Positions 4,960 through 41,907 of a DNA stretch of 42,664 bases are shown here, in pieces. Origin of the DNA: Oscillospiraceae bacterium (GTDB lineage Bacteria; Bacillota; Clostridia; Oscillospirales; Acutalibacteraceae); NCBI GenBank assembly GCA_015066165.1, contig SVOX01000001.1:1-42664 (forward strand), written 5' to 3'. Each line of letters opens with the position of its first letter. The first letter of the stretch is position 1. A program made the translations under genes and the position numbers. The notes under the pieces are model-generated. The model was given only the letters and a program-made list of their open reading frames with translations, was not told the origin of the DNA and did not search any database.

Positions 4960-4986
4960 AAAAACTCCGCTTCGGCGGAGTTTTTT
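4960..4986 (+). terminator. Intrinsic terminator
   Basis: CTCCGC-TTCG-GCGGAG (4965-4980) followed by TTTTTT (4981-4986). Confidence 0.8.
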
Positions 4987-5024
4987 AATGCGTAATTCAT
5001 AATTCGAAATGCGTAATTATTTTC

Positions 5025-24200: not shown

Positions 24201-24580
24201 TTATCATACGCAACACAAAAAACGCTCAAATAATATGTTTCGCCTGCAGTAAGGTAATATTCCATGCGGAAATTATCACCTTCGCCCTCATCGCAACCGC
24301 CTTGCTCAAGTCCCACATCGTTTTGTTGTGAATCATAAAGATATGCTTCTACATCTATGTCCGCAAACGATTCAAAAACATAATTACCTGTTTTTTGGGG
24401 TGTGAACGAAAAATATTTTGTCTCTCCTCCCTCAAAATTTACTGTTTGTTGCTCATCGAGAACAAGTTCGGTAGATTCTTGTCCCCAAGGAATGGTTGCA
24501 AATACTGCAGTGCTCATAACTGACATAAGCATAACTACAGCCAGTACAACTGCAACCGTCTTTTTGAAAATTGAGTTCAT
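18278..24580 (-). CDS. Giant secreted multidomain surface/adhesin-like protein (2,100 aa): signal peptide, PPC-like domains, W/Y-rich repeat modules, BspA-type LRRs, Cys-rich segment, Ig-like and FN3-like C-terminus
   Basis: One uninterrupted ORF. SD AAGGAGGG lies 6 nt upstream. The signal peptide is MNSIFKKTVAVVLAVVMLMSVMSTAVFA. Domain calls were made by eye and are detailed in the sub-features and findings. I see no LPXTG, SLH or choline-binding anchor. Confidence 0.9.
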   Translation of the reverse strand: MNSIFKKTVAVVLAVVMLMSVMSTAVFATIPWGQESTELVLDEQQTVNFEGGETKYFSFTPQKTGNYVFESFADIDVEAYLYDSQQNDVGLEQGGCDEGEGDNFRMEYYLTAGETYYLSVFCVAYDNYAIYAVPLMVTKGSKTVYDIKLDDITIEALRNGDFYHTYSKYYYEYHNWYKNIEFVTVVFSDESEQEYPLEFESEWSNRAWFEVGDKSYYIDFGYYYDEDFVGDTWLPGKTHTETVEWTYGEAEVDVTIAEPEEMDLSSITTFDYTYEDNDACYVIKPQESGLYKFQVEEDAYGRMIAFDKEFNEINTEYLSYDSGGKLNVYLKADETYYFSVQRLEIFEGDQGGTYSISAEITESTVESIDFRPISITEGTKCENRIDDENGKYYAYYWWNYLDYTVKFTDGCESTFRDDWICHDCGNVYEEYRLVIDKSYPSYENRWVAGETYDVTVQFMGEDYVVPVTIKESPVAEVEFEPIIVYEGLSEGYWTNRWDYETEENVEYFYYYWYPKYKITMADGEVIEGQGSGFNYEGDWFDFSYYDDQHNNHWKAGQNYTATVDFMGQTYEFPVTVAANPVKKIEIEPITVERIKDGYWSFYWDEENQQDVEYYRYKYEDKISYKITLTNDEVITGTALGTEDGAYIDFEGTRLHIDSEDTQHQNQWTIGNTYDAIIEVGSFEIPVKVTVKEPTFPKLVLNQDTSVTTIRGKNVYYEFTPSVNSTYYLESFSDSEVIDPYVYLYDENFNQIASDDDSRYDLDFKLECDLEAGKTYYFGIDGRNREETITVKLTKFESPIKSISFEPLKLIENVDGYYGEHEWFDYDYADKLTYTVTYKDGRTITKTGLGYWDEYLGQSVYMDWADDQHQQGWKVGNTYNATITVYGEKYTAPITIIADPIKKIEFNPITVEHLNGYWTEKWIWDEDEQEHVSAGEYYRYNYVDKIKTCEITLANGTTVTSNVMSGEYPYIVFEGKEYYLDWWDDQEEENWQVGGTYQVTVDVMGKNVPVSVTVNASNPTQLVLNKNETVTGPEIKYFAFTPAEDGTYAFESKGSSADPYVVICNSENREFGSSDDADNRNFKLICDLTAGQTYYFHIGFYGSSADSCVVKLTKLEEFIENIEFHDLKLYEGVNNRYPEGDLTERYYYQDKISYTITFKDGTEETFTGYSFEYDGQEYELDWEDSQWDEYWEAGNTYNVTVELLGKTYQFNVEVAESPVDYITVEPIIMSESDSYYDEDVGTVYRWRDLLSYTIYLKNGTEIKCSGDGYEFEGKKYPAWTDEEYPQWQDNWEVGNVYNVSVEVMGQWLDTQVSITEENYSDDGFCYLVQNEEAIITGVYYDFETLEIPEELGGYPVTAIVSLNGGTYKEVIIPDCVTKLSDGMFQDNESVEKITVGTGVEALNNKIFQDACALKEIVVDEANPEYKSLDGIVYDKDVTKMVAIPAAKETKHTVRATVTNIELYINGAYSFELEFEGENNTGYIWEDGILYNTDKTVIYSCDPEKTGEYEMPSTVKTISNGAFKNSALTSVTVSNSVKEIAYYAFVGSTELQKVVLPSTLTSISYGAFENCVNLTDVNIPSALKKLETRAFKNSGILSANIPLGVKEIGAEAFCGSDLEEVTLSEGLVAIGAAAFERSNITEVDLPDSLENIDAYAFYETNIKDIKFGPNLFEIGKLAFFDTKLEDVTIPDNVLMIGDGAFANTLIKNLKLSQNATYLSEGAFYNTDIQSVDIPDSVTDIAYRCFEDCENLMNIDLPSNLEALGYAFHGTKWYNSQPNGAVYLENAFYHYKGTSGNEVYIKNGTEIIAEYAFNNQKNLKTVYIPKSVKSIGDNAFFGCGDVVINYEGTRDDRAQMRIDDYETDQELTWNYSSCMHNWTNATCTAPKTCTLCGETQGTALGHKQVTVLGGKATLTANGSLLTKCSVCGHTLNATPIAKIASVTTTEKITYNGKTKKPAVTVKDANGKVIGSGNYTVKYASGRKNYGKYKITVTFKGNYSGTKSIYFEIVPKNSKVSKLTAAKKSLKVKIQKQKSASGYQIQYSTSKTFKSAKTVTLKKNSITSTTLKKLKPKKTYYVRVRTYKTYKGKKYYSAWSSAKSKKTK
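19046..20617 (-). repeat. BspA-type leucine-rich repeat region (aa ~1322-1845)
   Basis: ~23-aa repeats of the form (I/V)xIPxSVxxIGxxAFxxCxxLxx(V/I), for example VTVSNSVKEIAYYAFVGSTELQKVVLPSTLTSISYGAFENCVNLTDVNIPSALKKLETRAFKNS. Confidence 0.75.
20645..24496 (-). repeat. Protein-level super-repeat region (aa ~29-1312): four PPC-like domains, each followed by 1-3 copies of a ~100-115-aa W/Y/E/D-rich module
   Basis: PPC-like signature (K/N)xYYxFTPxxxGxYxFES...Y(L/V)YD...DDxxxxNFKLxxxLxAGxTYYFxI occurs near aa 40, 262, 697 and 1018. The module signature is PV..IEFEPI...E...GYW....W......EYY.Y.Y..KI.Y.ITL.(D/N)G......G...E...(Y/F).....DDQ....W..G.TY..TV...G......VTV. It recurs at least 8 times, diverged at the DNA level. 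Confidence 0.6.
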
Positions 24581-27711: not shown

Positions 27712-27832
27712 TAGCGGTTGGTGTATTTTAACCATAAATTTTAATACAAAATTCGAATGAAAATGCGAACTTTAAAAATCTGTAAGTCCCAAAATTTATT
27801 CGTATCTGTGCCAATGTGGATATAATAAATTA

Positions 27833-28056
27833 AGACGGCGATTATTCGCCGTCTTTTTTAATGAATTGCCTTGGGCGTGAATTGGCTTTGCCATGAATTG
27901 TTCGCTTTGCGAACATGAATTAAATTAAATCCTTATGCACCACAGTGCGATTCATGTTGCGCAGCAACAATTTATGTGCTTTAGCACGATTCATAAATCC
28001 GCAGGATTTAATTCATTGCAAAATTACGCTACTGCGAAATTTTGCACTGCGTTCCA
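27833..28056 (+). repeat. Composite intergenic repeat, copy A (terminator hairpin + eight-mini-hairpin array + tail; lacks the TTCACT head)
   Basis: Starts with AAGACGGCGATTATTCGCCGTCTTTTTT. The 192-nt core differs from copy B at 2 positions by eye. The tail TTACGCTACTGCGAAATTTTGCACTGCGTTCC is identical to copy C. Confidence 0.9.
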
Positions 28057-28068
28057 TCGCAACACAAG

Positions 28069-28094
28069 GGGGACGGTTCTATTGTCCCCTTTTA
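28069..28094 (+). terminator. Stand-alone intrinsic terminator-like hairpin between repeat copies
   Basis: GGGGGAC (28069-28075) / GTCCCC (28085-28090) followed by TTTT. No gene lies upstream on either strand. Confidence 0.5.
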
Positions 28095-28112
28095 TATTCC
28101 GTGCCGAAGGCA

Positions 28113-28347
28113 CACCGAAACTCTTCACTATTCACTTTTCACTCTTCACTAAAAAAGACGGCGATTATTCGCCGTCTTTTTTAATGAATTGCCTTGGGCG
28201 TGAATTGGCTTTGCCATGAATTGTTCGCTTTGCGAACATGAATTAAATTAAATCCTTATGCACCACAGTGCAATTCATGTTGCGCAGCAACAATTTATGT
28301 GCTTTAGCACAATTCATAAATCCGCAGGATTTAATTCATTGCAAAAA
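28113..28347 (+). repeat. Composite intergenic repeat, copy B (TTCACT heptad head + terminator + mini-hairpin array; tail replaced)
   Basis: The head carries four phased heptads (C/A/T)TTCACT at 28124-28151. The core is identical to copies A and C apart from 2 substitutions each. It diverges after ...AATTCATTGCAAAA into the operon terminator. Confidence 0.9.
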
Positions 28348-28367
28348 AGACGGCAATCAGCCGTCCT
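28344..28367 (-). terminator. Intrinsic terminator of the nine-gene catabolic operon
   Basis: Minus strand reads GGACGGC-TGATT-GCCGTC followed by TTTTTT. It lies 28 nt after the stop of 28395..29066. Confidence 0.8.
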
Positions 28368-28394
28368 TTTTGCATTGTGTTACATCACGAATTT

Positions 28395-29066
28395 TTAATA
28401 TTCATTACAAAGGAGATACAGCGGTTGCTCATCCTCTTCGATTTGGGCAAAGCGGCCAACCTTATCATAAAAACAGTTATCGTTTGCATCGTCGTTACAC
28501 ATAGAAACCTCGCCCACAATAACGTATCCTTTGCCTTCTTCACCCCAAAACCTGTGATAAAGACCTTTTGTAAGAGTGATGCTTTGACCGGGAGTAAGCT
28601 TTACAATATATCCTGCGGGGAAGGTGTGACGAACGCCGTCTATCGAAACTGTAACGTCAGTATCGGCAAGACAGTTATTTTCATCCGAATTGTAGAGCTT
28701 TATCATAAGATTACCACCACCGCGGTTTATGATGTCCTCCATCTTATACCAATGATAATGCATAGGTGTTACCTGATTTTCAGCAACTATCATAAGCTTT
28801 TCGGCATACGGTTTGGGATATTTTTCGGGATTTTTTTGACTTCCGTTTCTAAGCGTTATGAGAAAAAGTCCCACTTTACTAAAATTGCCGCTACCAAAAT
28901 CGGTAATATCCCAACCGAGTGCATTTTCTCTTATTTCGTCCGCTTCCGATCCCTTTGTTTGCCACTCCTCAGGCGTCCAAAAAAGAAACTCGGGTAACGA
29001 TATTTTATACTCTTTAAAAAGCTTTAAAGCGTTTTTTATAGCACTGTTAATTTCTGACCTTTTCAT
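28395..29066 (-). CDS. D-lyxose/D-mannose family sugar isomerase (cupin)
   Basis: The tracked ORF extends to 29129. ATG 29066 (MKRSEINSAI...) has GGAG upstream. ...GWDITDFGSGNF...LRNG...YAEKLMIVAENQVTPMHYHWYKMEDIINRGGGNL...GEVSMCNDDANDN...LLCNEY closely parallels the E. coli O157 D-lyxose isomerase as I recall it. Confidence 0.85.
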   Translation of the reverse strand: MKRSEINSAIKNALKLFKEYKISLPEFLFWTPEEWQTKGSEADEIRENALGWDITDFGSGNFSKVGLFLITLRNGSQKNPEKYPKPYAEKLMIVAENQVTPMHYHWYKMEDIINRGGGNLMIKLYNSDENNCLADTDVTVSIDGVRHTFPAGYIVKLTPGQSITLTKGLYHRFWGEEGKGYVIVGEVSMCNDDANDNCFYDKVGRFAQIEEDEQPLYLLCNEY

Positions 29067-29080
29067 ATAAAAATCTCCAA

Positions 29081-30880
29081 TTAACCCTTTTTCCAGCGTT
29101 GAATTACACAGGTAACTCTTCCGCCACATTCGTTGATGATTTCATAATCACCAAAGGAAGCGGGGATAACCAAGGTTGAAAACTTATCACACTCTGCCGA
29201 AAGCTCTGGATTAGACTTTGAGCGAACAGTTACCTTTGTAGCAACGGTAGGAGTGAACATATGCATAAACTTGCCTTCGGTGGAGTATTCTGCCTTTTTC
29301 TCAAAGTGAATTCTCTCTACATGATAGGGCATAACCGAATGAGTTTTATAGCGGTCCACAAAATATTCAGGTGTCCACTTTACAACCAACGGAGTTGACA
29401 AAAGGTTATCCTTTACCCAAGATTCGCGACGTGTTTTTTCCATATTTCTGCCGTGTTCAAGATGCATCTTTAAGGGTTTTCCTGTCATAGTTTTCTTTTC
29501 ATCATCCCAAGAAGGACGGGCAAAATCGTACTCGAAGAAAGAATATTCCGTACCATTAATACTTGGGTTTGTATCCATTTCAAGCACCATTTGATTACCG
29601 CCGTGACCGTGCATTGTTCCTGGTGGAATAAGATAAAGGTCGCCTTCCTTACTGTTCCAATTGGCAATAAAATCTTTCCAGTTTTCTATTGGTTTAATAT
29701 TTTGTGATTCTTCACAAAGACGTTCCCATTCTTCGATATCAGCATCATCCTTAAAGCCCATCCAGGTATTAGCGCCCTCGTAAGCTTCGGCTATGTAATA
29801 GGTTTCATAACGACCAAGTGGCTCGTCAAAATGGTCTTCAACATACTTACTGCTTGGGTGAATATGCATAGGCATACTGATACGCTCGGCAGGTTGGGGT
29901 GTTGGATGCCAACCGTCATCAAGCCAAATATCAAGTGGGAAAAGACCCGGGTATTGCTTATTGATAAGCGAACCAACAAGCTCCTCACCATACTGCATAG
30001 CATTTAGCATAGGCATTGAAATACTACGTTCACCGCCAAAGTCGATAAGAATACGAAGCTCTGGACCTGCGATTTTATTCCAAGCGTTATTAGCAAGACC
30101 TTCTACACCGTAATCCATCTGCTCATAGCGATATGCACCCCAAGGACCTGGGCTGAAAATCTTAACCTCGTGTATAGGATATTTAACAAGAGTTGACATT
30201 ATTTCGTCGTACGCCTTGCGAGGCACAAGAACCAAATCATCTTCAAAATAATTTTCAATGTAAAAATCCATTGCTTCATACATATAGTCTTTTTGGCGCT
30301 TTAAGATATAATAATCGGAATAGTTATATTCTTTCCAGCTGTAATCATTTGTAGGATCGGCTTGGCCAAAGGTTGCAAGCTTGCCTGTCCACATATCCCA
30401 TTGTACCTTTTGGTGAGTGTTGTCTATGTAACATTTAACGTCAACAACTTCTGCCAACGCCTTAACGCAGGCGCCCATACCATAGATAATTGAAACACCG
30501 CCCAAAAGTTTTTTCTTTGCGTTTTCTATCGCAGCGGGATTCATAATATCCTCGATAACGCCATTTTTATTAACCTTTCCAAAACCGGGGTCTTCAGTAA
30601 CAAAGGGGGCATTATAAGCGATAATTTCTTCACGCGATAAGAAGAATTCTTGCGCGGGAATAAGCGCTACTTCCCCACCAATTTGCTTGGCAATAGCGCA
30701 AGCGATTTTTTCAAAATCAATTCCGTACCAACCGTCAAGTGCAATAACTCTTGCTCCGCTTTTCACTTTGTCAGCCAAGGCGCTTACTGTCTTATCCCAT
30801 CCAAAAATAACAGAGTCTTTGTTTTTAGCCGAAATTTTAATTTTGTTATCGGCATTTTTAATTGATTCATAAACCGGCAT
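29081..30880 (-). CDS. 599-aa protein: unknown N-terminal domain(s) fused to a PMI-type-I-like cupin (putative aldose/ketose or sugar-phosphate isomerase)
   Basis: His-rich metal-site-like segments ISMPMHIHPS and LIPPGTMHGHGGNQMVLE lie in the C-terminal half. I do not recognise the N-terminal ~250 aa. There is no signal peptide. Confidence 0.45.
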   Translation of the reverse strand: MPVYESIKNADNKIKISAKNKDSVIFGWDKTVSALADKVKSGARVIALDGWYGIDFEKIACAIAKQIGGEVALIPAQEFFLSREEIIAYNAPFVTEDPGFGKVNKNGVIEDIMNPAAIENAKKKLLGGVSIIYGMGACVKALAEVVDVKCYIDNTHQKVQWDMWTGKLATFGQADPTNDYSWKEYNYSDYYILKRQKDYMYEAMDFYIENYFEDDLVLVPRKAYDEIMSTLVKYPIHEVKIFSPGPWGAYRYEQMDYGVEGLANNAWNKIAGPELRILIDFGGERSISMPMLNAMQYGEELVGSLINKQYPGLFPLDIWLDDGWHPTPQPAERISMPMHIHPSSKYVEDHFDEPLGRYETYYIAEAYEGANTWMGFKDDADIEEWERLCEESQNIKPIENWKDFIANWNSKEGDLYLIPPGTMHGHGGNQMVLEMDTNPSINGTEYSFFEYDFARPSWDDEKKTMTGKPLKMHLEHGRNMEKTRRESWVKDNLLSTPLVVKWTPEYFVDRYKTHSVMPYHVERIHFEKKAEYSTEGKFMHMFTPTVATKVTVRSKSNPELSAECDKFSTLVIPASFGDYEIINECGGRVTCVIQRWKKG

Positions 30881-30892
30881 AATAATTCTCCT

Positions 30893-32926
30893 TTAAAATT
30901 TTATTTTTTGCCCTATTTGAGCTTTATAAACTATGTCTTTACTTGTAACCGTGAATTCTTTACCCGTAATCTCTACTGAAAATACTTTTCCGCAAAGCCT
31001 TGCATTTTCTATTTTCATATTAGCGGCAGGGCGGTTTTCTACAGGACAAACCGTAATATTACCGTCAAAATCCGCCCTTATTCCAAAGATGAAAAAGAAT
31101 ATCATCTGAGCGGCTGATACCGAGCTGATATCACCCTGAAGCGGTGTATCTTCGCGGTTTCTTATCATATTAGCGGCACACGAATCGCCCATATACGGCA
31201 TACGCTCGCCCCACCAATACACTCGGCTTAAAATATCGGTTGCCAATTTGTCGTAGCCAATTTCGTAAAGCTGACCGCAAATTTGCATTGTAAAGTGGGT
31301 ACAAATTCCTCCGCCACCGTTATCGATATCCTCTTGGTCGTAGGCAATATCAAGCTTTGACATACTGTGAAGTCCGAATTTCGACAAAAATTCAGTTTCG
31401 TTAAGGTGTGAAATAAGCCCCTCCCGTTCTTTTGCATCAATTACGGGACTATTCAAAAACTTAAACATCTGAACGGTGTAACGTACGTCTCGTTTACCAT
31501 TTGAATCAATAAAATCATACCATTTTATATCATCGTTCCAAAGTGTTTTAAGCTTTTCTTTAAGCCCTAAAGCACGTTCTTTAAGGTCGTCGCAGGGCAT
31601 TTTTGCCACATTGCAAAGTTCCCACACTCGCATATAATTCATATACCTTCTGGCATTTAGGTCGGGCATAATGCCATCATAAAGTATGCCTCGGCGAAGC
31701 TCTAAATGGTCAAAACCGCTCTTGCCGTAATTGAATAAAGAGTTACCATCCTTACCTTCATCACAAGCGTAAGCATAATGTTTCATCCATTCAAGCACCG
31801 TCTTGCCCTCAACCACTTGGAACAAAAATTCTTTTTCGCCCGTAAAAAGCACGTGGTAGTAAACCATACAAATGATTTTTTCTTGGTTCACCTGATACCA
31901 AGGCCCCACCTTACCCGCAGTTACGGGATTTAGGGCATAAGAGGTTGTAAGGTCATTTTTAAGATAAGCCAAAAGTTGTTTTTTATTGCCAAAGGTATCG
32001 TAAATTGGGTGTATCATCAGTCCGCCGCAATAATCCCAAAGATATGAACACATACAAGCGCCGTTAATACTGCCTGTACTAAAATAAGGCACAGCACAAA
32101 GGTCGCTGTTTTCCCAACGGCAAAGCATATATGTAACAAGTGAGCGGTAGTATAGGTTATCGAGCGCTTTGTTATCGCTTGAAAGGTGTGGCAGATTATC
32201 GTAAATTCTTTTAGATTCTTTCGAAAACCACTCAAACGAGCTTTGCATAAAATCATAAAAATCAAAATTTTCCAAATTTTCGCCTTTTAAAACCGCTTCT
32301 TTTTTATCAAACTGTACCGTTATAAAAACCGTATATTCGCCGTTTGGATTTAATGTGATTTCACCCTCTAAAAGACGGGCTAACTTAAAAAGCTTTACGG
32401 GAATTGACACGGTAATATTCATACCGCAATCATCGGTTTCCAAATACACACCGTTTTTTTGCGGTATAGTATTTGTCACCAAGTTTTTTGCTGTTTGCGG
32501 ACCTAAAAAATCCCAGTTACTTTCATACCGTGGGTTTGCGGTGTATTCAATTTGAAAAGGTAGGGTTAAGACTTTGCTTGTTTTATTTTTATAGGTCACA
32601 CCCATTACAAAACGGCGACTTTTCGGCACTACCGCAGTAATGGTTTCTATCGTAAAATCGGCAGTCTCACCCACACGCTTCATAGCGTTCGGAAGCCATA
32701 CCCATTCTTTCACTTTTACCCTTTCGCCATTTGTTACAACGTCAAGGTGAAATCCCGTATCGGTATATGGACATCCCTGAAAACAGTCGGCGGCCGCCAC
32801 CGAATATTCGGGAGTACGAAGCGAAGAAACATCTGCGCAAATGCCCAAATCCTTTTCTTCTAAAATTGAAAATTCACCTTTAAAAGCGTAAACACTGTTT
32901 TCAAAATAAGAATTATATCTTTTCAT
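30893..32926 (-). CDS. Putative (alpha/alpha)6-barrel glycoside hydrolase, GH63 / MGH1 / GDE_C-like
   Basis: The tracked start is GTG 32938. ATG 32926 is preceded by GAGGGTG. The C-terminal half carries ...FLSKFGLHSMSKLDIAYDQ... (compare GLRSLS..DP.Y of GDE_C/GH63-type toroids) and an aromatic-rich helical region. There is no signal peptide. The family call is tentative. Confidence 0.4.
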   Translation of the reverse strand: MKRYNSYFENSVYAFKGEFSILEEKDLGICADVSSLRTPEYSVAAADCFQGCPYTDTGFHLDVVTNGERVKVKEWVWLPNAMKRVGETADFTIETITAVVPKSRRFVMGVTYKNKTSKVLTLPFQIEYTANPRYESNWDFLGPQTAKNLVTNTIPQKNGVYLETDDCGMNITVSIPVKLFKLARLLEGEITLNPNGEYTVFITVQFDKKEAVLKGENLENFDFYDFMQSSFEWFSKESKRIYDNLPHLSSDNKALDNLYYRSLVTYMLCRWENSDLCAVPYFSTGSINGACMCSYLWDYCGGLMIHPIYDTFGNKKQLLAYLKNDLTTSYALNPVTAGKVGPWYQVNQEKIICMVYYHVLFTGEKEFLFQVVEGKTVLEWMKHYAYACDEGKDGNSLFNYGKSGFDHLELRRGILYDGIMPDLNARRYMNYMRVWELCNVAKMPCDDLKERALGLKEKLKTLWNDDIKWYDFIDSNGKRDVRYTVQMFKFLNSPVIDAKEREGLISHLNETEFLSKFGLHSMSKLDIAYDQEDIDNGGGGICTHFTMQICGQLYEIGYDKLATDILSRVYWWGERMPYMGDSCAANMIRNREDTPLQGDISSVSAAQMIFFFIFGIRADFDGNITVCPVENRPAANMKIENARLCGKVFSVEITGKEFTVTSKDIVYKAQIGQKIKF

Positions 32927-32934
32927 TTTCACCC

Positions 32935-33933
32935 TCACGCCATAGTTTCAAGCATTTTTAAGGTTACTTCGTAGCTTGTGGCTTCGCCCTTTGAAAAAGC
33001 AATATATTCATCTATCATATACTGCGCCATTCGGTGTATTTCCTTGCCGCCGCTCCCTGCTATATGGGGTGTTAAAATGCAATTGGGAAGGGTGTACAGT
33101 TCACTCGAATTTACGGGAGGTTCGGGCTCGGTCACATCGAGCAGTGCAGTAATATCGTCACGCTTTTTAAGAACCTCTATCATTTCGTTCTCCTTTACCT
33201 GCGCGCCGCGACCAGTATTTATAAAGGTGGCGTATTTTGGCATTGAAGCCAACAATTCACCTGTTATCATACCTTGGGTTTTGGGATTATCGGCAAGGTG
33301 GTTTGAAACTACGTTACATTCTTTGAAAATTTCTTCTAAAGATGCTTTTCGGGCGCCATATTTTGCAATTACAGCTTCATCCACAAAAGCATCAAAAACC
33401 AAAACCTCTACATCGTAGTCCATAAGCTTTTTAAGAACAAGTTTGCCTATCATCCCAGCTCCCAAAATACCTACCTTTGCGCCGTAATTACCGGGGTAAA
33501 TATCACAAAATTCACGCATTCTTTCAAAATTTTCGCTTTTTTTATAATTTTGTGTTTTAAAAAAGCCCTTATTAGCAAGAATAATTTGCGCCGTGGTATA
33601 TTCGGCAACGGGTACCGCATTCGCGGCCCAAGCCGAAAAAACCTTTACACCACAGTTTAAAAACGGTTTTGCAAAGCGCTGAACACTGCCTGCGGCATAG
33701 AAAATTGCCTTTAAATTTGGAAAATATTCTTTAATTTCAGCTTCGGAATATTCCTGCATACCCCAAGTAGCAAAAGCTATTTCAGCTTCTTTGGGATTTA
33801 CTTGTCCAGAAAGAATTTTTTCTTTTGTAAAAACTTCGAATTTTACGTTTGTTATATCAATCAATCTTTGTATAAGCTCTTCGCCGTAAACCTTTTTTAC
33901 TCCACGTTCAAGACCTAAAAATATAGCTTTCAT
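32935..33933 (-). CDS. D-isomer-specific 2-hydroxyacid dehydrogenase family protein (NAD-binding)
   Basis: ATG 33933 (MKAIFLGLERG...) lies 1 nt after the upstream stop, with GGGTGA before it. The dinucleotide fold is GILGAGMIGKLV..., followed by ...NTGRG... and TPHIAGS. Confidence 0.75.
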   Translation of the reverse strand: MKAIFLGLERGVKKVYGEELIQRLIDITNVKFEVFTKEKILSGQVNPKEAEIAFATWGMQEYSEAEIKEYFPNLKAIFYAAGSVQRFAKPFLNCGVKVFSAWAANAVPVAEYTTAQIILANKGFFKTQNYKKSENFERMREFCDIYPGNYGAKVGILGAGMIGKLVLKKLMDYDVEVLVFDAFVDEAVIAKYGARKASLEEIFKECNVVSNHLADNPKTQGMITGELLASMPKYATFINTGRGAQVKENEMIEVLKKRDDITALLDVTEPEPPVNSSELYTLPNCILTPHIAGSGGKEIHRMAQYMIDEYIAFSKGEATSYEVTLKMLETMA

Positions 33934-33934
33934 A

Positions 33935-34681
33935 CTATTCACCCACAATTCTTTTAAGTGCTGCCGACTCTGCTTCAAGCGAAGCAATTTTGCCGTCGGG
34001 CATAAATTCCAAAAGCAAGGTTTTATCCTTTTTGAAGCACTTTAAATACTCTTTCCAAGTGTCCGTGCCGTCACAAAGTGGAAATTTTTGCTTTTCCTTC
34101 CAATTAAAGACGTGCAAATGCTCGGTATAAGGCGACAAAGCAGTTGCATAATTTATATTTTCTTCTACCGTTCTAAACTGATTTGGTTGCCAATACATTA
34201 AAAAATGCTTAGAATTTACTGCTTTTATAAGTGAAAGTGCCGACTCCTTGGTATCGGTATAGGTCCAGTTATGGCACTCAAGACAAAGCCTTACGTTGTG
34301 TTTTTGAGCAATATTTGCCGCCTTTTTACATTCTTCAAAAAGAAATTCGGTTTCACTTTTTGAATACTCTGCCGAGCCCTTATTGCCGCACCAAAGCCGT
34401 AAAATATCAGTGCCGAGTATTTTCGCCGCTTTTATATAACCCTCAAGCTCTTTAGTATCATCTACACCAAGATTAAAATAGGTACCGTATGAGCAACACT
34501 TTATTCCGTATTCTTTTTGCATTTTTACAATTTCTTCGAGCTTTTTTATATCATCCTTGGGTGCGTGAATATCACTTCCCCATTCAATAACCGAAAGTCC
34601 TGCTTTTTGCATAGCTTCAAGTATTTCTTTTGCGGAGTGTTCCCTAAAAGAAATAGAAACCAAACCCAAACTGTAAGACAT
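33935..34681 (-). CDS. Xylose-isomerase-like TIM-barrel protein (sugar phosphate isomerase/epimerase family)
   Basis: 248 aa. Pattern: ...GLSVIEWGSDIH...LRLWCG...LCLECHNWTY...MYWQPN.... Confidence 0.7.
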   Translation of the reverse strand: MSYSLGLVSISFREHSAKEILEAMQKAGLSVIEWGSDIHAPKDDIKKLEEIVKMQKEYGIKCCSYGTYFNLGVDDTKELEGYIKAAKILGTDILRLWCGNKGSAEYSKSETEFLFEECKKAANIAQKHNVRLCLECHNWTYTDTKESALSLIKAVNSKHFLMYWQPNQFRTVEENINYATALSPYTEHLHVFNWKEKQKFPLCDGTDTWKEYLKCFKKDKTLLLEFMPDGKIASLEAESAALKRIVGE

Positions 34682-34693
34682 ATACTTTTCTCC

Positions 34694-36577
34694 CTAATAA
34701 ACGTTTTTATTATCTCTGTAGCTGCGCCAAATATTTTCAAAAAAGTCGTCATTTTGCGGAATTGGTCGAACGTTGCGCCAAGACGACGTAAAACCATTTT
34801 TAGTAATAACCGTTTCTTGCACCTTTAAACGTGAAGCGCCGCTTTCTTCGGTAAAACGAAAAACTTCTTCAAGTCCGTTTCGTAAATTGCCGTTTTCATC
34901 GAAACACAAACTCGAGCCACGGGTATCCTTTACCGTTTGGGCGTAGTTTATCATAGCGTTAAGTAACGCTTTTTGCGTTGTTACAATATCCTTATATTTG
35001 TAATAAAGATATACACGTGACCTATCGCTTACCGTAGCGTTTTTATAGTCTGCGCCTACAAGCATATCGGTCATTTTTGCTTTGTTCCTTATAGCGCCTG
35101 CGCAATCACTCATATTACGCTGTGCTGATAAAATCAGTTCTTCTACGTTATCTGTATTCCCGATTACTGCCTTAATCTCTTTTTGGGTTTCTTCTTCGAC
35201 ACAGCTTAAAACAATTTGAAAATCCTCTTGCGAAATTATCTCATTTCCGTTTTGAGCAATATACTGCGCTGCGCGAAGACTGCCCACCTGCCCTGCATTT
35301 AACGCACTGCCACCGGGACGGGTCACGCCGTGAGTACCTGCGCATTCGCCCGCACAGAATAAGCCCTTAACACTTGTTTGCCACCACATATCAACCGCAA
35401 TACCGCCGTTATTATGTTGGGCACAAAGGGCAATTTCAAGATACTCTTTAGTTATATCCAAACCCTTGCCTTTATAAAGTTCAATAGCGGGGGTATTCAT
35501 TTTTTGAAGGCGCTCAATAGGCGTACCAAACAGCGCCTCGGCTTTATTCAAGTAATCGAATGCCTCTTTGGATAATTTGTTATATTCGATATCTTCTAAA
35601 CCAAAGGGATTTTTAGTAAAATCAAGATATACCCTGCGGTTTTTAAGCACACATTCACGATAAACAAGCAAATCAATAACCGAAGAACCTTCTAAAATCT
35701 TTTTAGAATCAAAAGGCCACTGATATCCCTTTAAGAAAACGAGCGATAACGCTTCATATATATCTTCAAAATAATCGGCCAAAAACTCATACTCGTTACC
35801 GTCTTTATCAACCGAAACAAAACGAGGTAAAACCTGCATATACGTGCCCGAAACGTTCCAACGGGGGTTAATTGATGCTAAACCGTACTGCCACTCGGTA
35901 AGGTTTTGCGCTTTGGCGCCTGCTAAAAGTGCAAGACTTGTAGTTCCCGTGTGACATTCGGGATATACACTATCGGCATAAATTCCCGCAGGACCTCCCG
36001 TGCACATAACGATATCGGCACACTTAAATGCCACAAGAATACCGTTTTTCTTTTCTATACACAAAAGACCGCAAACTACATCTTTATACTTTAAAACTTT
36101 AATAGCAAGGTAACCACTATATATTTCTACGCCCAGATTTTGAGCATTTTTTTGCAATGCCTCGGTCATAAATTTAGAGGTAAGAGGTCCTGCCGAGGTT
36201 GCTCTGGCATAAGGGTCGTGGTCGGTTTTATAGCCAACGTATTCGCCGTAACGGTTTACGGGAAACTCCACACCCAATTCACACAAATTCATAAAACAGC
36301 GTGTAGAAAGCGCCGCTTCGCAAAGAGCGTTATCACCATCGACACCGCACCCTGCAAAAAGGTTTTCCGCCATTTTATAAACGCTGTCGGCGGTATCACC
36401 GCCAAGACCTAATTTATAATATGTTTGCTTATCGCTGCCTGTATTACGTGATGTTCCACATCCTACAGCTTCGGTAACTATGGCAACATTTTTACCAAAC
36501 TGCTTAAGTCGGCAAGCGGCGTTATACCCTGCAGCACCCGTGCCGATTACGACCGCATCGTATGTATATATTTTCAT
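34694..36577 (-). CDS. FAD-binding flavoprotein oxidoreductase (fumarate reductase/succinate dehydrogenase/L-aspartate oxidase-type FAD_binding_2 fold)
   Basis: 627 aa. The N-terminus is YDAVVIGTGAAGYNAACRL..., and a late FCAGECAGTHGVTRPGGSALN segment is typical of this fold. There is no signal peptide. Confidence 0.65.
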   Translation of the reverse strand: MKIYTYDAVVIGTGAAGYNAACRLKQFGKNVAIVTEAVGCGTSRNTGSDKQTYYKLGLGGDTADSVYKMAENLFAGCGVDGDNALCEAALSTRCFMNLCELGVEFPVNRYGEYVGYKTDHDPYARATSAGPLTSKFMTEALQKNAQNLGVEIYSGYLAIKVLKYKDVVCGLLCIEKKNGILVAFKCADIVMCTGGPAGIYADSVYPECHTGTTSLALLAGAKAQNLTEWQYGLASINPRWNVSGTYMQVLPRFVSVDKDGNEYEFLADYFEDIYEALSLVFLKGYQWPFDSKKILEGSSVIDLLVYRECVLKNRRVYLDFTKNPFGLEDIEYNKLSKEAFDYLNKAEALFGTPIERLQKMNTPAIELYKGKGLDITKEYLEIALCAQHNNGGIAVDMWWQTSVKGLFCAGECAGTHGVTRPGGSALNAGQVGSLRAAQYIAQNGNEIISQEDFQIVLSCVEEETQKEIKAVIGNTDNVEELILSAQRNMSDCAGAIRNKAKMTDMLVGADYKNATVSDRSRVYLYYKYKDIVTTQKALLNAMINYAQTVKDTRGSSLCFDENGNLRNGLEEVFRFTEESGASRLKVQETVITKNGFTSSWRNVRPIPQNDDFFENIWRSYRDNKNVY

Positions 36578-37305
36578 TATAATCTCCTAATATGGAATCC
36601 GCCGTCAACGTCGATAGACTGTCCTGTAACATAAGGCAAAGAGCCATTACAAAGTGTCCACACAGCGTTTGCTATATCCTCCGGTTTTCCCCAACGCTTA
36701 ATGGGTAACAGTCCGCCATCTATTAGTGCATCGTATTTTGCTTTAACCTTATCGGTCATACCCGTAGCGATAATACCAGGGCGAATTTCGTTAACCATAA
36801 TACCGTACTCGGCAAGGCGGTCGGCAAAAAGGGTGGTTATCATTGTAACACCCGCTTTTGAGATGCAGTATTCCCCACGACTGACACTGCTTGTATATCC
36901 CGACATTGAAGATATATTTACAATACTTCCCGATTTATTTTCCTTCATTACGTTTGCAACCGCTTGTGTTAAAAACAAGGTTCCCTTGGTGTTTATATTC
37001 ATAACAAAATCGTAAGATTCCTCGGTCATTTCGAGAATATCCGCTCTAACCTTTGGGGCTACGCCCGCAACGTTTACAAGAATATCAACCCTACCGTATT
37101 TTTCCATTGCGGTTTTAAGGTAAGCTTCACGGCTTTTCTTATCACTTAAATCACCTTTGAAATAAGTAAAGTCGCCCTCTAATTCTTGGGGCATTTGGGG
37201 TAATACATCCATACCAACAACACTAACGCCGTTTTCTAAAAGTTTTTTTGCCGTAGCAAATCCTATACCACCCGCAACACCTGTTACCAATGCAATTTTT
37301 TTCAT
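36577..37305 (-). CDS. Short-chain dehydrogenase/reductase (SDR)
   Basis: 242 aa. Motifs are TGVAGGIGFATAKKL (TGxxxGxG), NVAG and YCISKAG (YxxxK). It overlaps the downstream start by 1 nt. Confidence 0.88.
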   Translation of the reverse strand: MKKIALVTGVAGGIGFATAKKLLENGVSVVGMDVLPQMPQELEGDFTYFKGDLSDKKSREAYLKTAMEKYGRVDILVNVAGVAPKVRADILEMTEESYDFVMNINTKGTLFLTQAVANVMKENKSGSIVNISSMSGYTSSVSRGEYCISKAGVTMITTLFADRLAEYGIMVNEIRPGIIATGMTDKVKAKYDALIDGGLLPIKRWGKPEDIANAVWTLCNGSLPYVTGQSIDVDGGFHIRRL

Positions 37306-37306
37306 T

Positions 37307-39127
37307 TTATTTCCTCTTTATATTTATTGTAACTTCATACTGCTTACCGCATAATGCCGTAAATTTCAGTCGGTTCATTTTGTCGGTATTCCAGTTTGCT
37401 TTGAGTTTCTCATCATCTTCAAAATCAACGCTATCATAAGCAAAAGCACCCTCGCAGTCGGCTGTGACGATAAATTCGTTACCGATAATCGCCTTATTGC
37501 CTTCGATAGTTATTTCAAGCGGAGTTATAAAATGCTCACAAAACGTATTTTTATCTTTTGTAAAAACAAATTTATCTTTTATTGAAACTCCGTCTTCATT
37601 TACTGTAACAAAGCGATCTAATGTTTCGATTTTTGCCTCTTTTCTATACGCTTTTGCAAAGCTTATATGGGTAGTGGTACCTTCCATTTCAAAATTATCG
37701 GCCTTGTAAATTTTGCCGTCGGGTTGTTCGTATTCCCCCGTTTGACCAAAGCCGTTAATTTGGGGTAAATTGTGCCACGAAGAGTTCATTGTCCATATAT
37801 CATAACGCTGCAAAGAAAATGTTTTTGCGTTGTAAGTACCGCTACCCGAATCAACAAAAACAGGACAACCATTATAATAAACTATTGCACTACCCACATC
37901 GTAGTGATTATGGCGTTCGGCATTATGACCGCCCTTTGCAGCATAAAACCAACCGTTTTTATGAACAAAAGCATTTTGAGTGTCCTTTAAAATGCAGCTA
38001 TCGCACGGCTCAAAATCAGTCAAAGCTTTAATTTCATCTTCATAAATTAAATCAAAAACCATTCTGCGAAGCATTGAATCGTTATCATTAAGTTCATTAG
38101 GAATAAGATTTAACTCTTTTGACAATGATGAAAGCCGACTATCGTTTATTCGTTTGCCGTACATATAAAGAATATAACTTATTTGTGCGTTTTTAAGGGT
38201 TGTGGCGCCGTCGGCAAAATTGGTGAAATAACCGTTACCAATGTATGCGCGGTATTCATATTTACCGCAGTTTTGAGTGGTTTCATCATTAAAAAAGTTA
38301 ATTTTTCCATTTGTGGCTATGAATAATTGGTCGCAAAATTCAAAAAACGCACCTTGTGACATACACCAATAGGTAGCACCCTCATCACAACCGCCGTCAC
38401 GTGGATAGGTGTTGTAAATTCCCTGTATTTCGCTAATCATCTTTTCTATTCCGTGTTTTAATTTTTCACTGTCCTTTTGCATTATCAAAAATACTGTTAA
38501 AAGGTTAGAAAGTATCCACGGGTTCCAGTTGTCAACCTTCCAGCCGGGTGTGTTGCACATCCAAATAAAATCCCGTCTTTCGAGATAGGGTTTTATTATG
38601 CGGCGTTCTATTTCATACTCAATGCGCTCTAACATTTCGGGACAATATTTCCTTATACCTTCCCCTAAAAGATAATGGCAAAGGGTTAGCATTACCGCAG
38701 TTTCGGCGGCAAAAATATCAATATAGGGGTCATCTGCCGCCTGAATATCATAAGGAGCACCTAACGGATGCTTATGAGCAGACAAGGTCCAAGTGGTTTC
38801 TTCGCACAAAAGCAATGCCCCGTCAACGATATCGGGGATAAATCTGCCTTTGTTTTCAAGCAGTTCACCCAAAATCAACGCGCAAAACGCGGCGCGGCGC
38901 TCAAAATAGGGCTTTTCGTGCCTTTGGCGACTGCCCTCGGTATGAAAAGCAATAAAATCCGATGCCTTTATTAAAGGCCAACTAAAGCCAAGAAATTTTT
39001 CCGCCCTTTTTACATACTTTTCCTTATATTTGCTATCCCAAAATTCACGGTTGGAACCATTTGGGAAAAGCATATTTGAAAAATCAAAATCTGCAACGTT
39101 ATTTTCTTTGAGCCAGGTTACAAACAT
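37307..39127 (-). CDS. Heparinase II/III-like family protein (polysaccharide/oligosaccharide lyase fold), cytoplasmic
   Basis: 606 aa with no signal peptide. The N-terminal helical toroid region is ...FWDSKY...RAAFCALILGELL...LLLCEETTWTLSAH.... The C-terminal GGHNAERHNHYDVGSAIVYYNGCPVFVDSGSGTY matches the start of the Hepar_II_III beta-sandwich. Confidence 0.7.
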   Translation of the reverse strand: MFVTWLKENNVADFDFSNMLFPNGSNREFWDSKYKEKYVKRAEKFLGFSWPLIKASDFIAFHTEGSRQRHEKPYFERRAAFCALILGELLENKGRFIPDIVDGALLLCEETTWTLSAHKHPLGAPYDIQAADDPYIDIFAAETAVMLTLCHYLLGEGIRKYCPEMLERIEYEIERRIIKPYLERRDFIWMCNTPGWKVDNWNPWILSNLLTVFLIMQKDSEKLKHGIEKMISEIQGIYNTYPRDGGCDEGATYWCMSQGAFFEFCDQLFIATNGKINFFNDETTQNCGKYEYRAYIGNGYFTNFADGATTLKNAQISYILYMYGKRINDSRLSSLSKELNLIPNELNDNDSMLRRMVFDLIYEDEIKALTDFEPCDSCILKDTQNAFVHKNGWFYAAKGGHNAERHNHYDVGSAIVYYNGCPVFVDSGSGTYNAKTFSLQRYDIWTMNSSWHNLPQINGFGQTGEYEQPDGKIYKADNFEMEGTTTHISFAKAYRKEAKIETLDRFVTVNEDGVSIKDKFVFTKDKNTFCEHFITPLEITIEGNKAIIGNEFIVTADCEGAFAYDSVDFEDDEKLKANWNTDKMNRLKFTALCGKQYEVTINIKRK

Positions 39128-39131
39128 AAAA

Positions 39132-40454
39132 TCAACCCTTTAAACATTGTTTTTTATATATTGGCAAATAAACCTCTTTATCTCTTATTACACAACCGGG
39201 AGTCCCACCCGCAGTACGCATAATTTCGGTACATTTTGAACAACAAATACAAATTTTATTTTTATCCATACTGCCGTTTTTTATTATATCCTTTGCAAAA
39301 TCGGGGTAAGCAAAAATTGTTCTGCCAAATCCCGCAAAATCAAAAGCGCCATTTTGTATAAAAGCCGAAACAACGTTTGGTGCCGCAACACCTAAATAAG
39401 TTATAGCCGAGCAAATAATCGCCATTTCGGGATTTAAGCTTTTAATTTTCTCAATACCTTTAAGTACTCTTGCCACACCTTGTAACGGATGCTCGGGCGG
39501 TTCATACCCACCGCTAACGTACGGACGGTTTACGTGGGGATTAAAATAAGGGTTGCCCATCGTAATATTAAGAAGCTTTACTCCGTAAGAATGAAGCTCT
39601 TTTATAAGACGGTCGGGTTCGGTAATATCAAACTCTGTTCCGCCGTTTTCACTAACGCCAAAACCGTAAGGGTATGGGAAACCGTCATAAACGTTAAGCC
39701 GAGAAGATACAATAAAATCTTTAGAGCAATTTTCAATTGCACCTTTTACACTCTCGCGCAAAAGACGTGTGCGGTTTTCAAAGCAACCGCCGTATTTACC
39801 TTCGCGTTCAAATGCCGACAGTAATTCCGAATTAAGATAACGGTGACAGCATTTTATATCCACACCGTCAAAGCCTGCCTTTTGGGCAAGTAATGCACCG
39901 TTTACAAGCGCTTCTTTTACGCTATCAAGATATTCATCAGTAGCAATACGGCTTTTATCTATTGGGTTTTCCTTTTCAAAAATCGGGTTATTGTAGGCGA
40001 TTATCGGTGCAGGCGTTCCGTTCGGCTTTGAATAACGTCCCGAATGGGTTGCCTGCATAATAACAAGCGGTTCGTAGCCATTTTCTTTAAAAGCGGTATT
40101 TTTAATATCCTCAACCTGACGCTTAAATGCATCTATATTGTTTTCGTTTATGTATAGTTGATGCGGATTGGCTCTGCCCTCTTCCATTACGGCGGTCGCC
40201 TCAAACCAAATAAGCCCCGCTCCGCCTGTGGCAATTCGTTCATAACGTCTTTTAGTCAAAGTGTCTGGTTCACCGTCGGGTGTTCCGTCACAACCCTCCA
40301 TCGCTTGACAAACAAGTCGGTTTGGAACAGTTTTTACTCCTAATTTATAATCTTTACCCAAAACCGAAACGTCATTAGAAAAAGGAAGGGCTGTGCCCAG
40401 CTCATTGTTCTGAATTTCAAAATCTTTTAATTCCGTATATACCTTTCTAACCAT
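39132..40454 (-). CDS. Old-Yellow-Enzyme-type NADH:flavin oxidoreductase with a C-terminal Cys cluster (enoate/2,4-dienoyl-CoA-reductase N-terminal module only)
   Basis: 440 aa. VPNRLVCQAMEG...GGAGLIWFEATAV...ATHSGR...GFDGVDIKCCHRYL is an OYE TIM barrel. The C-terminal CICCSKC-x12-C resembles the CxxCxxxC...C 4Fe-4S motif of the FadH/enoate reductase family. The protein ends about 20 aa later, with no FAD/NAD(P) domain. Confidence 0.75.
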   Translation of the reverse strand: MVRKVYTELKDFEIQNNELGTALPFSNDVSVLGKDYKLGVKTVPNRLVCQAMEGCDGTPDGEPDTLTKRRYERIATGGAGLIWFEATAVMEEGRANPHQLYINENNIDAFKRQVEDIKNTAFKENGYEPLVIMQATHSGRYSKPNGTPAPIIAYNNPIFEKENPIDKSRIATDEYLDSVKEALVNGALLAQKAGFDGVDIKCCHRYLNSELLSAFEREGKYGGCFENRTRLLRESVKGAIENCSKDFIVSSRLNVYDGFPYPYGFGVSENGGTEFDITEPDRLIKELHSYGVKLLNITMGNPYFNPHVNRPYVSGGYEPPEHPLQGVARVLKGIEKIKSLNPEMAIICSAITYLGVAAPNVVSAFIQNGAFDFAGFGRTIFAYPDFAKDIIKNGSMDKNKICICCSKCTEIMRTAGGTPGCVIRDKEVYLPIYKKQCLKG

Positions 40455-40589
40455 TCAAAACATCCTTTTACTCCATTTTATAAAACCATTATATAAACTC
40501 ACGGCACCAATAACAATATTAATATTGCTCAAAATTATGTAAATCTTGCTTTTTGGGGCAAATTGTGTTAAAATTCAATCGGTGATACT

Positions 40590-41384
40590 ATGAATACTTT
40601 TATACACTCCGCAAAATATACCGATACGGTTAAAAAAATAAGCCCGCACCATCACGATGTACATCAAATATTGTACGTAACCGACGGCTGTGCCGAAATG
40701 ACAATAAACGGCGAATGCTTTTTATTAAAAAAGGGGTCGCTTATATTCATCAGCCGAATGGAAGCGCACTCGGTAAATAACACAAGCGAAAATTACAAGC
40801 GGTATGAAATACGAATACCGCCCGAAATCATAGCCGAAGATATGAAGAACATTAAGCTCTTTTCAGTGCTTTTTGACCGACCGCAGGGCTTTAGCCGAGT
40901 AATCGAGCTACCCGTTGAAAAAACGGCGCCTATCTTTGAACAAATAGTGGCCGAACAAAACCAAAATAACGCATATAAAGCCGAAATGCAGTCTTCGCTT
41001 TTGGATATGCTTTTCATAAATATATACAGAAGCTTTCCTCAATTATTTTCGTCGGCTGAAACTCCCGCTTTTGAAACGGTTAAAAAAATCCAACAGCAGT
41101 TTGAAAATAATATTGAATACAAATATTCTTTAGAAGAAATTTCGCAAGAATATCATATAAGCAAATTTTATCTTTCCCACATTTTTAAAAGTATTACGGG
41201 ATATGCCGTTATGGACTATTTAAAATCACTCCGCATAGCAAGGGCAAAAAACATGCTCGCAAAGACAAATTTGAGTATTAGTGAAATTGTTAAAACTTGC
41301 GGTTTTTCGGATAGCAGTAACTTTAGCCGAGAATTTAAATCAATTACCGGACAAACCCCGAGTAAATTTAGAAACTCACATTGA
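40590..41384 (+). CDS. AraC-family transcriptional regulator (cupin sensor + HTH_AraC)
   Basis: 264 aa. The N-terminal cupin-like region is HHHDVHQILYVTDG.... The C-terminal region is ...YSLEEISQEYHISKFYLSHIFKSITGYAVMDYLKSLRIARAKNML...SISEIVKTCGFSDSSNFSREFKSITGQTPSKFR. It is divergent from the operon. Confidence 0.88.
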   Translation: MNTFIHSAKYTDTVKKISPHHHDVHQILYVTDGCAEMTINGECFLLKKGSLIFISRMEAHSVNNTSENYKRYEIRIPPEIIAEDMKNIKLFSVLFDRPQGFSRVIELPVEKTAPIFEQIVAEQNQNNAYKAEMQSSLLDMLFINIYRSFPQLFSSAETPAFETVKKIQQQFENNIEYKYSLEEISQEYHISKFYLSHIFKSITGYAVMDYLKSLRIARAKNMLAKTNLSISEIVKTCGFSDSSNFSREFKSITGQTPSKFRNSH

Positions 41385-41400
41385 CTTTTCTGAATATGGT

Positions 41401-41667
41401 ACACCTTACTTCTTCACTATTCACTTTTCACTCTTCAATAAAAAAGACGGCGATTATTCGCCGTCTTTTTTAATTAATTGCCTTGGGCGTGAATTGGCTT
41501 TGCCATGAATTGTTCGCTTTGCGAACATGAATTGAATTAAATCCTTATGCACCACAGTGCAATTCATGTTGCGCAGCAACAATTTATGTGCTTTAGCACA
41601 ATTCATAAATCCGCAGGATTTAATTCATTGCAAAATTACGCTACTGCGAAATTTTGCACTGCGTTCC
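41401..41667 (+). repeat. Composite intergenic repeat, copy C (full length: heptad head + terminator + mini-hairpin array + tail)
   Basis: Heptads lie at 41412-41439, the terminator GACGGCGATTATTCGCCGTC+T6 at about 41446-41471, and the core and tail run through ...GCACTGCGTTCC (41667). It starts 17 nt after the AraC stop. Confidence 0.9.
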
Positions 41668-41907
41668 GTCGTGCTTTATTTCGTAATTTTCTTTTAATAT
41701 CAAGTCGCTTATAAACACAAACTCATACCCCTGCTCCTTTAGGGTTTTAAGAATAGTCGGTAACGCTTCGGGTGTATGGTCGGCATCGTTATGGAAAAGC
41801 ACAATACTACCATTTTTGACCTTGCTTGTCACCCGTTTTGCAATACTTTCGGGCGTAGCATTTTCTTTCCAGTCAAGCGAGTCACCATACGATACAAAAG
41901 TAATATT
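41641..41907 (-). pseudogene. Polysaccharide deacetylase (NodB-homology, PdaA/PdaB-like) 3' remnant; N-terminal ~2/3 missing
   Basis: The frame is open from 41907 with no start codon: ITFVSYGDSLDWKENATPESIAKRVTSKVKNGSIVLFHNDADHTPEALPTILKTLKEQGYEFVFISDLILKENYEIKHDGTQ.... This is the C-terminal NodB pattern. An in-frame TAA lies at 41908-41910. The last 9 codons and the stop lie inside repeat copy C. Confidence 0.7.

Follow-up and report, generated by a model that had tools for sequence, protein, structure and literature searches.

Loss of a nine-gene metabolic operon between direct repeats of a gene-terminal intergenic module in an uncultured gut Clostridia bacterium

The first 42,664 nucleotides of contig SVOX01000001.1 (assembly GCA_015066165.1, an uncultured Oscillospiraceae bacterium), referred to here as the window (42.6 kb), carry a nine-gene operon for sugar metabolism and its divergent AraC-family regulator, bracketed by three directly oriented copies (A, B and C) of an intergenic repeat. 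The block measures 13,612 bp from A to C and comprises the operon, its regulator and a single repeat unit; it is a strain-variable accessory segment, and contigs of the same organism from other metagenomes were found in which it is missing and a single hybrid repeat copy is left. The block is likely to be deleted when A and C recombine homologously, and the reverse reaction probably installed it. Operon loss by recombination of direct repeats on either side is familiar, and this is a new, well-documented instance in an uncultured gut Clostridia lineage, placed near Acutalibacteraceae from its nearest loci; more unusual are the repeat element itself and its bearing on the orphan motif Gut-1.

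The repeats were defined by repeat finding, alignment and exact base comparison across the window. All three copies lie on the plus strand (Table 1) and have in common a 192-nt core (A 27832-28023, B 28155-28346, C 41444-41635), within which A and B differ at two sites (27949/28272 and 27988/28311), B and C at another two (28186/41475 and 28245/41534), and A and C at all four. Beyond the core, the match of A with C continues through a 36-nt 3′ tail to a total of 228 nt with five mismatches, at an offset of 13,612 nt, and that of B with C reaches 46 nt further on the 5′ side, to a total of 238 nt with eight mismatches. The direct repeats are 98-99% identical over 192-228 nt (two to five mismatches), and no two copies have an identical stretch of 140 nt or more in common. 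A chance origin is excluded, because a 27-mer of the core occurs three times in the window and was absent from 100 shuffles. No further core copy was detected elsewhere in the window or in the next 1.7 kb of the contig to the right (L118); all three are at the block.

The copies are built from a common set of modules, namely an array of TTCAC heptads (E), a terminator hairpin (H), a palindromic element of about 180 nt (M), a hairpin H3 and the tail of a polysaccharide deacetylase gene. The order of modules in the window is left flank / H-M-H3-tail(14) / S-E-H-M / H2-tail′(~18)-operon-AraC / E′-H-M-H3-tail-deacetylase remnant / right flank, in which S is the spacer between A and B and the left side of copy A is joined to the upstream region of a Wzy gene. 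The outer arms differ, with E facing E′, a truncated and different variant of the array (ACACCTTAC.. vs. ACACCGAAAC..), on the left, and the deacetylase tail facing a diverged tail remnant beside LyxI on the right. Directly 3′ of copy B there is a GC hairpin with A and T runs on either side (28340-28374), just downstream of the stop of LyxI (28395); this hairpin, H2, a second terminator of deacetylase type, is the one that ends the operon. At the other end, the AraC open reading frame (ORF) ends at 41384 and the B-like homology starts at about 41398, that is, 14-17 nt beyond the AraC stop, whereas the stop and final codons of the deacetylase remnant (the last nine codons, ORF end 41641) lie inside the tail shared by A and C. 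In orientation, boundaries and substitution counts, and in the terminator that begins where copy B ends, exact comparison agreed with a first-pass annotation of the sequence.

The same annotation had predicted an empty site in which one repeat copy would join ~27832 to the right flank. A search for contigs encoding the exact left-flank Wzy_C protein returned 17. Two of them, L001 and L002, were filled like the window; L001, as well as L118, comes from JGI 3300029705 contig Ga0224414_10001641 and is 100% identical to the window. The empty site was found in L003 (ENA ERZ27248446), L004 (ENA ERZ27248351) and one more similar place. In L003 and L004 the Wzy flank is followed by a single hybrid repeat copy and then by the deacetylase remnant and the right-flank gene, so that ~27832 is joined to ~41671 and 13,612 bp are missing from each. 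The empty contigs come from independent samples, and at least eight island-bearing contigs were counted against them.

When compared base by base, L003 and L004 were perfect single-crossover products of A and C, and otherwise free of mismatches. Their crossover intervals (Table 1) do not overlap and are ~40-130 nt apart, a variation seen in only two sampled events. The 10,031 nt of left flank beside A are 100% identical in L001-L005, filled and empty alike, and therefore the polymorphism is recent and lies within one clone. Whatever the single-crossover scenario, one empty allele or both must have arisen from the filled allele by deletion; most simply, the data are read as two independent deletions, the block having been lost at least once in a clonal natural population. 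The first-pass annotation had also considered that the bracketing might be a coincidence of a widely dispersed element without presence/absence polymorphism; such polymorphism was found at these boundaries.

We therefore favour a mechanism in which A and C, being 98-99% identical over 192-228 nt and in direct orientation, would recombine homologously, looping out the block and leaving one hybrid copy, with RecA as the presumed agent. Deletion between direct repeats and Campbell-type integration by RecA are known for islands and islets flanked by insertion sequence (IS) copies, rrn operons or repetitive extragenic palindromic (REP)-type repeats. The present case is like these in its ~200-bp, 98-99% identical direct repeats, the single hybrid copy left, crossover positions that vary and no element-encoded recombinase, but unlike the typical ones in that the repeat is a gene terminator region plus a Gut-1-like palindrome instead of an IS or rRNA operon, and in that there are three copies rather than two. 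For the arrival of the block, a circle carrying an E′-H-M-H2-tail module could have recombined, in a Campbell-type crossover placed inside H-M, with an E-H-M-H3-tail module standing in the chromosome where a deacetylase paralog has its 3′ end, B and C being the two products. Such an arrival would leave B and C with different outer arms and matching cores, and H2 with its ~18-nt diverged tail remnant beside LyxI fits incoming DNA that brought a module of its own. Copy A may be the relic of a further tandem module.

Several observations weigh against this scheme. The three-copy layout, with A in tandem with B, requires extra, undocumented rearrangements, and the population evidence comes wholly from short-read metagenome assemblies, at the level of contigs. 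The copy count covers the 42.6-kb window plus 1.7 kb of the contig. Junctions of AraC-C with S-B, the mark of a circle or a tandem array, were absent from the 22 AraC-bearing and 11 A-B-bearing contigs that were compared. Nor does the sister-species locus (L124 and L126) tell whether the block was first gained or first lost, as the neighbours there differ: in the nearest sister species (L124, Wzy 81% identical) the Wzy gene has another neighbour and homology to the window stops at 27756, so that the locus does not show the ancestral arrangement. Of the two outcomes that had been proposed for the repeats, excision is borne out by the hybrid copies of L003 and L004, whereas tandem amplification, although possible in principle, is unsupported, as are excised circles.

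The repeats had also been likened to an attL/attR scar, and a site-specific island, with the 3′ end of the deacetylase gene as target and the integrase encoded elsewhere in the genome, would account for several features. As in many islands inserted at the 3′ ends of tRNA, tmRNA (transfer-messenger RNA) or protein genes, the repeats overlap the 3′ end of a protein gene and rebuild its last codons, the outer arms differ (E vs. E′, tail vs. diverged tail) while the cores match, and excision is precise and leaves one copy; the cargo here consists of metabolic genes together with a regulator. A gene 3′ end that serves as insertion site and is duplicated, by which islands are recognised, is seen in the tail of A and C and in the diverged remnant beside LyxI, when set against the native flank of relatives. 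However, a tyrosine or serine recombinase exchanges strands at one fixed core, and the two natural junctions crossed in different intervals, ~40-130 nt apart. In addition, no integrase or excisionase is encoded in the block or in other parts of the window, and the 192-nt near-identical core far exceeds typical att cores and is ample for RecA. The att-like difference of the arms therefore stands, but the variable crossovers and the absence of an integrase favour homologous over site-specific recombination, and the island is a very unlikely explanation.

An assembly artefact, in which the empty contigs would be chimeric joins over a collapsed repeat in a population where the block is fixed, is very unlikely. 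Assemblers evidently struggle here, as many contigs of the same organism (L005-L010) end within the repeat, and all of the evidence comes from MEGAHIT or JGI assemblies. Nevertheless, the hybrid junctions combine markers 68-121 nt apart that are never found together in the filled genome, and the haplotypes of L003 and L004 need 141-mers absent from it. With such novel combinations and no stretch of at least 140 nt common to any two copies, neither contig should be threadable from k = 141 words of the filled genome, which makes chimeras unlikely. Two samples gave two different and internally perfect single-crossover products, and a third similar place was reported.

The origin of the repeat was traced in relatives, meaning Acutalibacteraceae and Oscillospiraceae metagenome-assembled genomes (MAGs) with full-length polysaccharide deacetylase genes. 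A spurious 94-aa ORF spanning A to B, used as a protein query, yielded L011 and L012, that is, E-H-deacetylase loci and no further copy of M; a TTCAC-motif scan of GTDB representatives yielded L037, L043, L062, L070, L087 and L089. At the 3′ end of the deacetylase gene in relatives the order is a mini-hairpin, four TTCACTN heptads (E) and a bidirectional terminator hairpin (H), into which the last codons of the gene (..HDGTQCKKDG) extend. In L011, L012, L037, L043, L062, L087 and L089, the native 3′ flank of the gene consists of the array, the terminator hairpin and the tail, without M. In most relatives H is joined straight to the gene tail, whereas in the window some 180 nt (M, in C 41472-41651) separate the tail from the T run of H. 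The earlier suggestion that the repeat is a duplicated deacetylase 3′ flank is thus right for E, H and the tail, M being an addition.

Homologous counterparts of the spacer S lie upstream of the E-H module both in L043 (99% over 116 nt, including E and H) and in L011. Over S, E and H, which are non-coding, positions 28064-28179 of the window are 99% identical to positions 2565-2679 of L043 (JAZOUK010000025.1), from a different species, although the adjoining deacetylase genes are only ~79% identical, which suggests that the intergenic module is strongly constrained or was transferred recently. A full-length deacetylase paralog (254 aa; L118 5190-5992) lies ~1.6 kb past the right end of the window; it ends in an H-type hairpin of its own and shares the tail (..ACACTGCGTTCCGTCGTG), without a TTCAC array and without M. 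Tandem deacetylase paralogs, two or three in number, were also seen in relatives.

The four-heptad array TCTTCACTATTCACTTTTCACTCTTCA (window 28122-28150 and 41411-41439) occurs at 89 exact places in GTDB species representatives from many phyla, and long TTCACTN tandem arrays were detected in Chitinophagales, Vulcanimicrobiota and Lentisphaeria MAGs. In Oscillospirales the array stands between a mini GC hairpin and a terminator. It is directly upstream of an apparent tmRNA gene in L029, L055, L063, L067, L085 and L101, with the gene confirmed by Rfam in L055, L067 and L101.

Most of the homology between the copies is supplied by M, and this is simply the role demonstrated for it at the locus. 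M is a multi-hairpin element consisting of a left arm of AUGAAUU and mini-hairpin units, a centre, and a right arm of mini-hairpin and AAUUCAU units, with 8-bp terminal inverted repeats (AATGAATT...AATTCATT), and it sits in a T run. It folded far better than shuffled sequences as RNA (z = -9.9 for the plus strand and -6.9 for the minus strand) and as DNA (z = -7.4). Rfam gave no match in the window at the gathering threshold; below it, the right arm read on the minus strand (41556-41630) matched Gut-1 (RF01706) with 30.1 bits (E = 5e-4; gathering score 50), and this arm has three mini-hairpins with repeated UGAAAU-type spacers, the layout of Gut-1. Gut-1 has been described only as a stand-alone candidate small RNA (sRNA) from human-gut metagenomes (Weinberg et al., 2010, PMC2864571). 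No later work on it was found in the literature that was searched.

Related loci already fetched were scanned for the heptamer-based architecture of M, with shuffled controls. M-like elements were found in L055, L067, L070, L083 and L101 and in none of the controls. Each uses its own heptamer (TGAAATA in L055, GTGAAAT in L067, GCGATAT in L070, ATGAAGT in L083 and ATATCAT in L101), with the exact reverse complement in the opposite arm, and several have the AAATCCnnnGGATTT hairpin in common. The gathering score of Gut-1 was passed by both arms of the L067 element, on opposite strands, and by one arm of the L055 element (Table 1). In Acutalibacteraceae and Oscillospiraceae MAGs, Gut-1 is present as inverted pairs on opposite strands of one palindrome (L067 4400-4595, L055 4862-5040). 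These two elements are ~30 (L055) and 550 nt (L067) downstream of a tmRNA gene, and the palindromic element of L101 (1646-1790) and its tmRNA gene are ~1.3 kb apart. L070 has an M-type element at the very site of M, between H and the deacetylase tail. By these comparisons, M is a divergent member of a family of Gut-1-related palindromic elements. It is like Gut-1 in its mini-hairpins separated by a repeated UGAAAU-like heptamer, and unlike it in scoring below the gathering threshold, in having AUGAAUU rather than GUGAAAU as heptamer, and in being a palindrome of two opposite-strand arrays. On the opposite strand, the heptads of E read AGTGAAN, which resembles the Gut-1 spacer GUGAAAU.

Like REP/BIME, Correia, BOX, RUP and ERIC elements, M is strongly structured and non-coding, lies beside terminators between convergent genes and can serve as a recombination substrate. 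It differs from them in that no high copy number is in evidence (window plus 1.7 kb) and no RAYT or other transposase is nearby. The architecture of M, unrelated mini-hairpins punctuated by an element-specific heptamer, is likewise unlike that of all these families as they are generally described.

In another reading, H-M (192 nt) would be mobile in its own right, as a miniature inverted-repeat (MITE) or palindrome-associated (PATE) element, and the block would be a composite transposon served by a transposase in trans; this is highly improbable. M is present here and absent from the orthologous site in most relatives, its 8-bp terminal inverted repeats and T-run position would suit a mobile element, and the related element of L083 is partly duplicated around a small gene. 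Against this, the empty site keeps exactly one hybrid copy, where a transposon would leave none or a footprint, there is no clear target-site duplication, and no transposase is encoded in the window. M was found at no other locus in ~0.8 Mb of related DNA, and exact scans with a 27-mer of its core gave no hit in IMG/VR, in GTDB species representatives or in a metagenome collection, the last of which also misses JGI contigs known to carry the 27-mer. Two other candidates were dropped: integron attC sites, since IntI is absent, the cargo measures 13 kb and no R″/R′ core-site motifs were seen by eye, and IS200/IS605 ends or a PATE, as the three left junctions have no consistent target tetranucleotide and there is no TnpA/TnpB gene.

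A bolder proposal, which we regard as doubtful, is that H-M belongs to an undescribed family of 'double Gut-1' palindromes located beside terminator hairpins and acting as portable recombination sites that capture or shed neighbouring genes. The layout of such elements would be three or four copies of an element-specific heptamer between unrelated mini-hairpins, with its exact reverse complement in the other arm. The portable-site reading draws on two cases, the 13.6-kb operon described here and, in L083, a gene for an intervening sequence (IVS) protein bracketed by a duplicated half-element. If the family were real, Gut-1 would be a DNA-level or two-strand element and not a conventional sRNA gene.

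In L083 (6599-7190), a 64-nt Gut-1-like half-element is duplicated, with the copies 528 nt apart and 100% identical. They bracket a 117-aa 23S_rRNA_IVP gene (PF05635, E = 8e-26), and the whole structure follows right after an E array and terminator, a small-scale parallel to the block of the window. Homologs 48-52% identical to the L083 protein are encoded just past an apparent tRNA 3′ end in L033 (5460-5980) and L039 (1100-1610), flanked by TTCAC heptads and by inverted GTGAA/GTAAT heptads around a hairpin. This suggests an association of IVP genes with heptad arrays, in a sample biased by the choice of loci for carrying heptads.

The content of the block was analysed by domain searches of its ORFs in Pfam, NCBIfam and PDB. 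The products of the operon include a D-lyxose/mannose isomerase (LyxI), a 2-hydroxyacid dehydrogenase (2HADH), a sugar-phosphate isomerase-like TIM barrel protein, a flavin adenine dinucleotide (FAD) flavoprotein, a short-chain dehydrogenase (SDR), a heparinase II/III-like protein and an Old Yellow Enzyme (OYE)-type flavin oxidoreductase. Two large ORFs had no family assignment: the one of 599 aa had as its sole match a weak cupin similarity to mannose-phosphate isomerase (PDB), and the one of 681 aa had no match in any of the three databases. No transporter is encoded in the block. As had been noted for the region between the repeats, no recombinase domain (integrase, transposase or relaxase) was found in any ORF of the block, nor in the rest of the window. 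The deacetylase remnant gave no Pfam match.

Related OYE-SDR-FAD(-TIM-2HADH)+AraC clusters were identified in other metagenome contigs (L102-L117), with 50-81% protein identity; repeats of the block type are absent around them, and the donor context was not recovered. The GC content of the block is 0.395-0.409 (28001-40000), overall ~0.40 vs. ~0.36 in the flanks, where most 2-kb bins are at 0.33-0.39; as this difference is mild and not diagnostic, a foreign origin was not argued from it.

Outside the block, the window is ordinary chromosome, encoding ABC transporters, FtsK, a fructose-bisphosphate aldolase, a Clp-like protease, a sulfatase, a 2100-aa leucine-rich repeat (LRR) protein, a penicillin-binding protein (PBP) transpeptidase and the Wzy_C protein. 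The 2100-aa ORF (18278-24580, minus strand) contains LRR_5 repeats and, at the DNA level, the internal repeat families D3 and D4, and in relatives it is also found beside PBP and Wzy genes. Two adjacent paralogous genes for family-3 solute-binding proteins (13591-14358 and 14640-15401, minus strand; Pfam) share a 74-nt stretch that is 80% identical (family D2).

Table 1. Coordinates of the repeats, crossover intervals, block genes and Gut-1 matches; positions are those of the window unless a locus is named.
Feature	Position	Strand	Components or basis
Repeat copy A	27832..28059	+	H 27832-27855, M core 27860-28017, H3 28018-28045, deacetylase-tail remnant 28046-28059 (14 nt); without TTCAC array
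Crossover interval of L003	27923..27948 (= C 41535-41560)	+	A path to 27948, C path from 41535
Crossover interval of L004	27989..28055 (= C 41601-41667)	+	A path to 28055, C path from 41601
Spacer S between A and B	28060..28108	+	Terminator-like hairpin GGGGGACGGTTCTATTGTCCCC, then T run
Mini-hairpin GTGCCGAAGGCAC of copy B	28101-28113	+	Sequence
Repeat copy B	28109..28346	+	E 28122-28150 (TTCAC heptads), H 28155-28178, M core 28183-28340; without H3 and tail
Hairpin H2 TGCAAAAAAGACGGCAATCAGCCGTCCTTTTTGCA and ~18-nt diverged deacetylase-tail-like remnant GCATTGTGTTACATCACG	28340..28389		Reading of the sequence against H-tail modules of relatives
Nine-gene operon	28395..40454	-	Pfam, NCBIfam, PDB
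AraC-family regulator, divergent to operon	40590..41384	+	Pfam
Repeat copy C, fullest of the three	41398..41671	+	E′ heptads 41411-41439, H 41444-41467, M core 41472-41629, H3 41630-41657, deacetylase tail 41658-41671
Polysaccharide deacetylase remnant, 5′-truncated (~84 of ~250 codons)	41641..41895	-	ORF; comparison with full-length deacetylases of L011 and L012; blastn to relatives
L067 element, arm	4400-4474	+	Gut-1, 68.3 bits
L067 element, arm	4521-4595	-	Gut-1, 54.9 bits
L055 element, arm	4862-4948	+	Gut-1, 45.4 bits
L055 element, arm	4970-5040	-	Gut-1, 71.5 bits

The locus offers a clean natural case of a metabolic operon turned into a presence/absence polymorphism within one clone of an uncultured gut bacterium, without a mobility gene, ~200 bp of duplicated intergenic sequence being sufficient for it. 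For pangenomic work with MAGs, it explains both the contig breaks at this locus and the appearance of an 'accessory' operon between samples with identical flanks. Gut-1, an orphan motif since 2010, now has a place in MAGs of Acutalibacteraceae and Oscillospiraceae, where it is seen to form inverted pairs; this alters the experiments that are sensible for it, and this side result may matter more to specialists in RNA or mobile elements than the loss of the operon itself.

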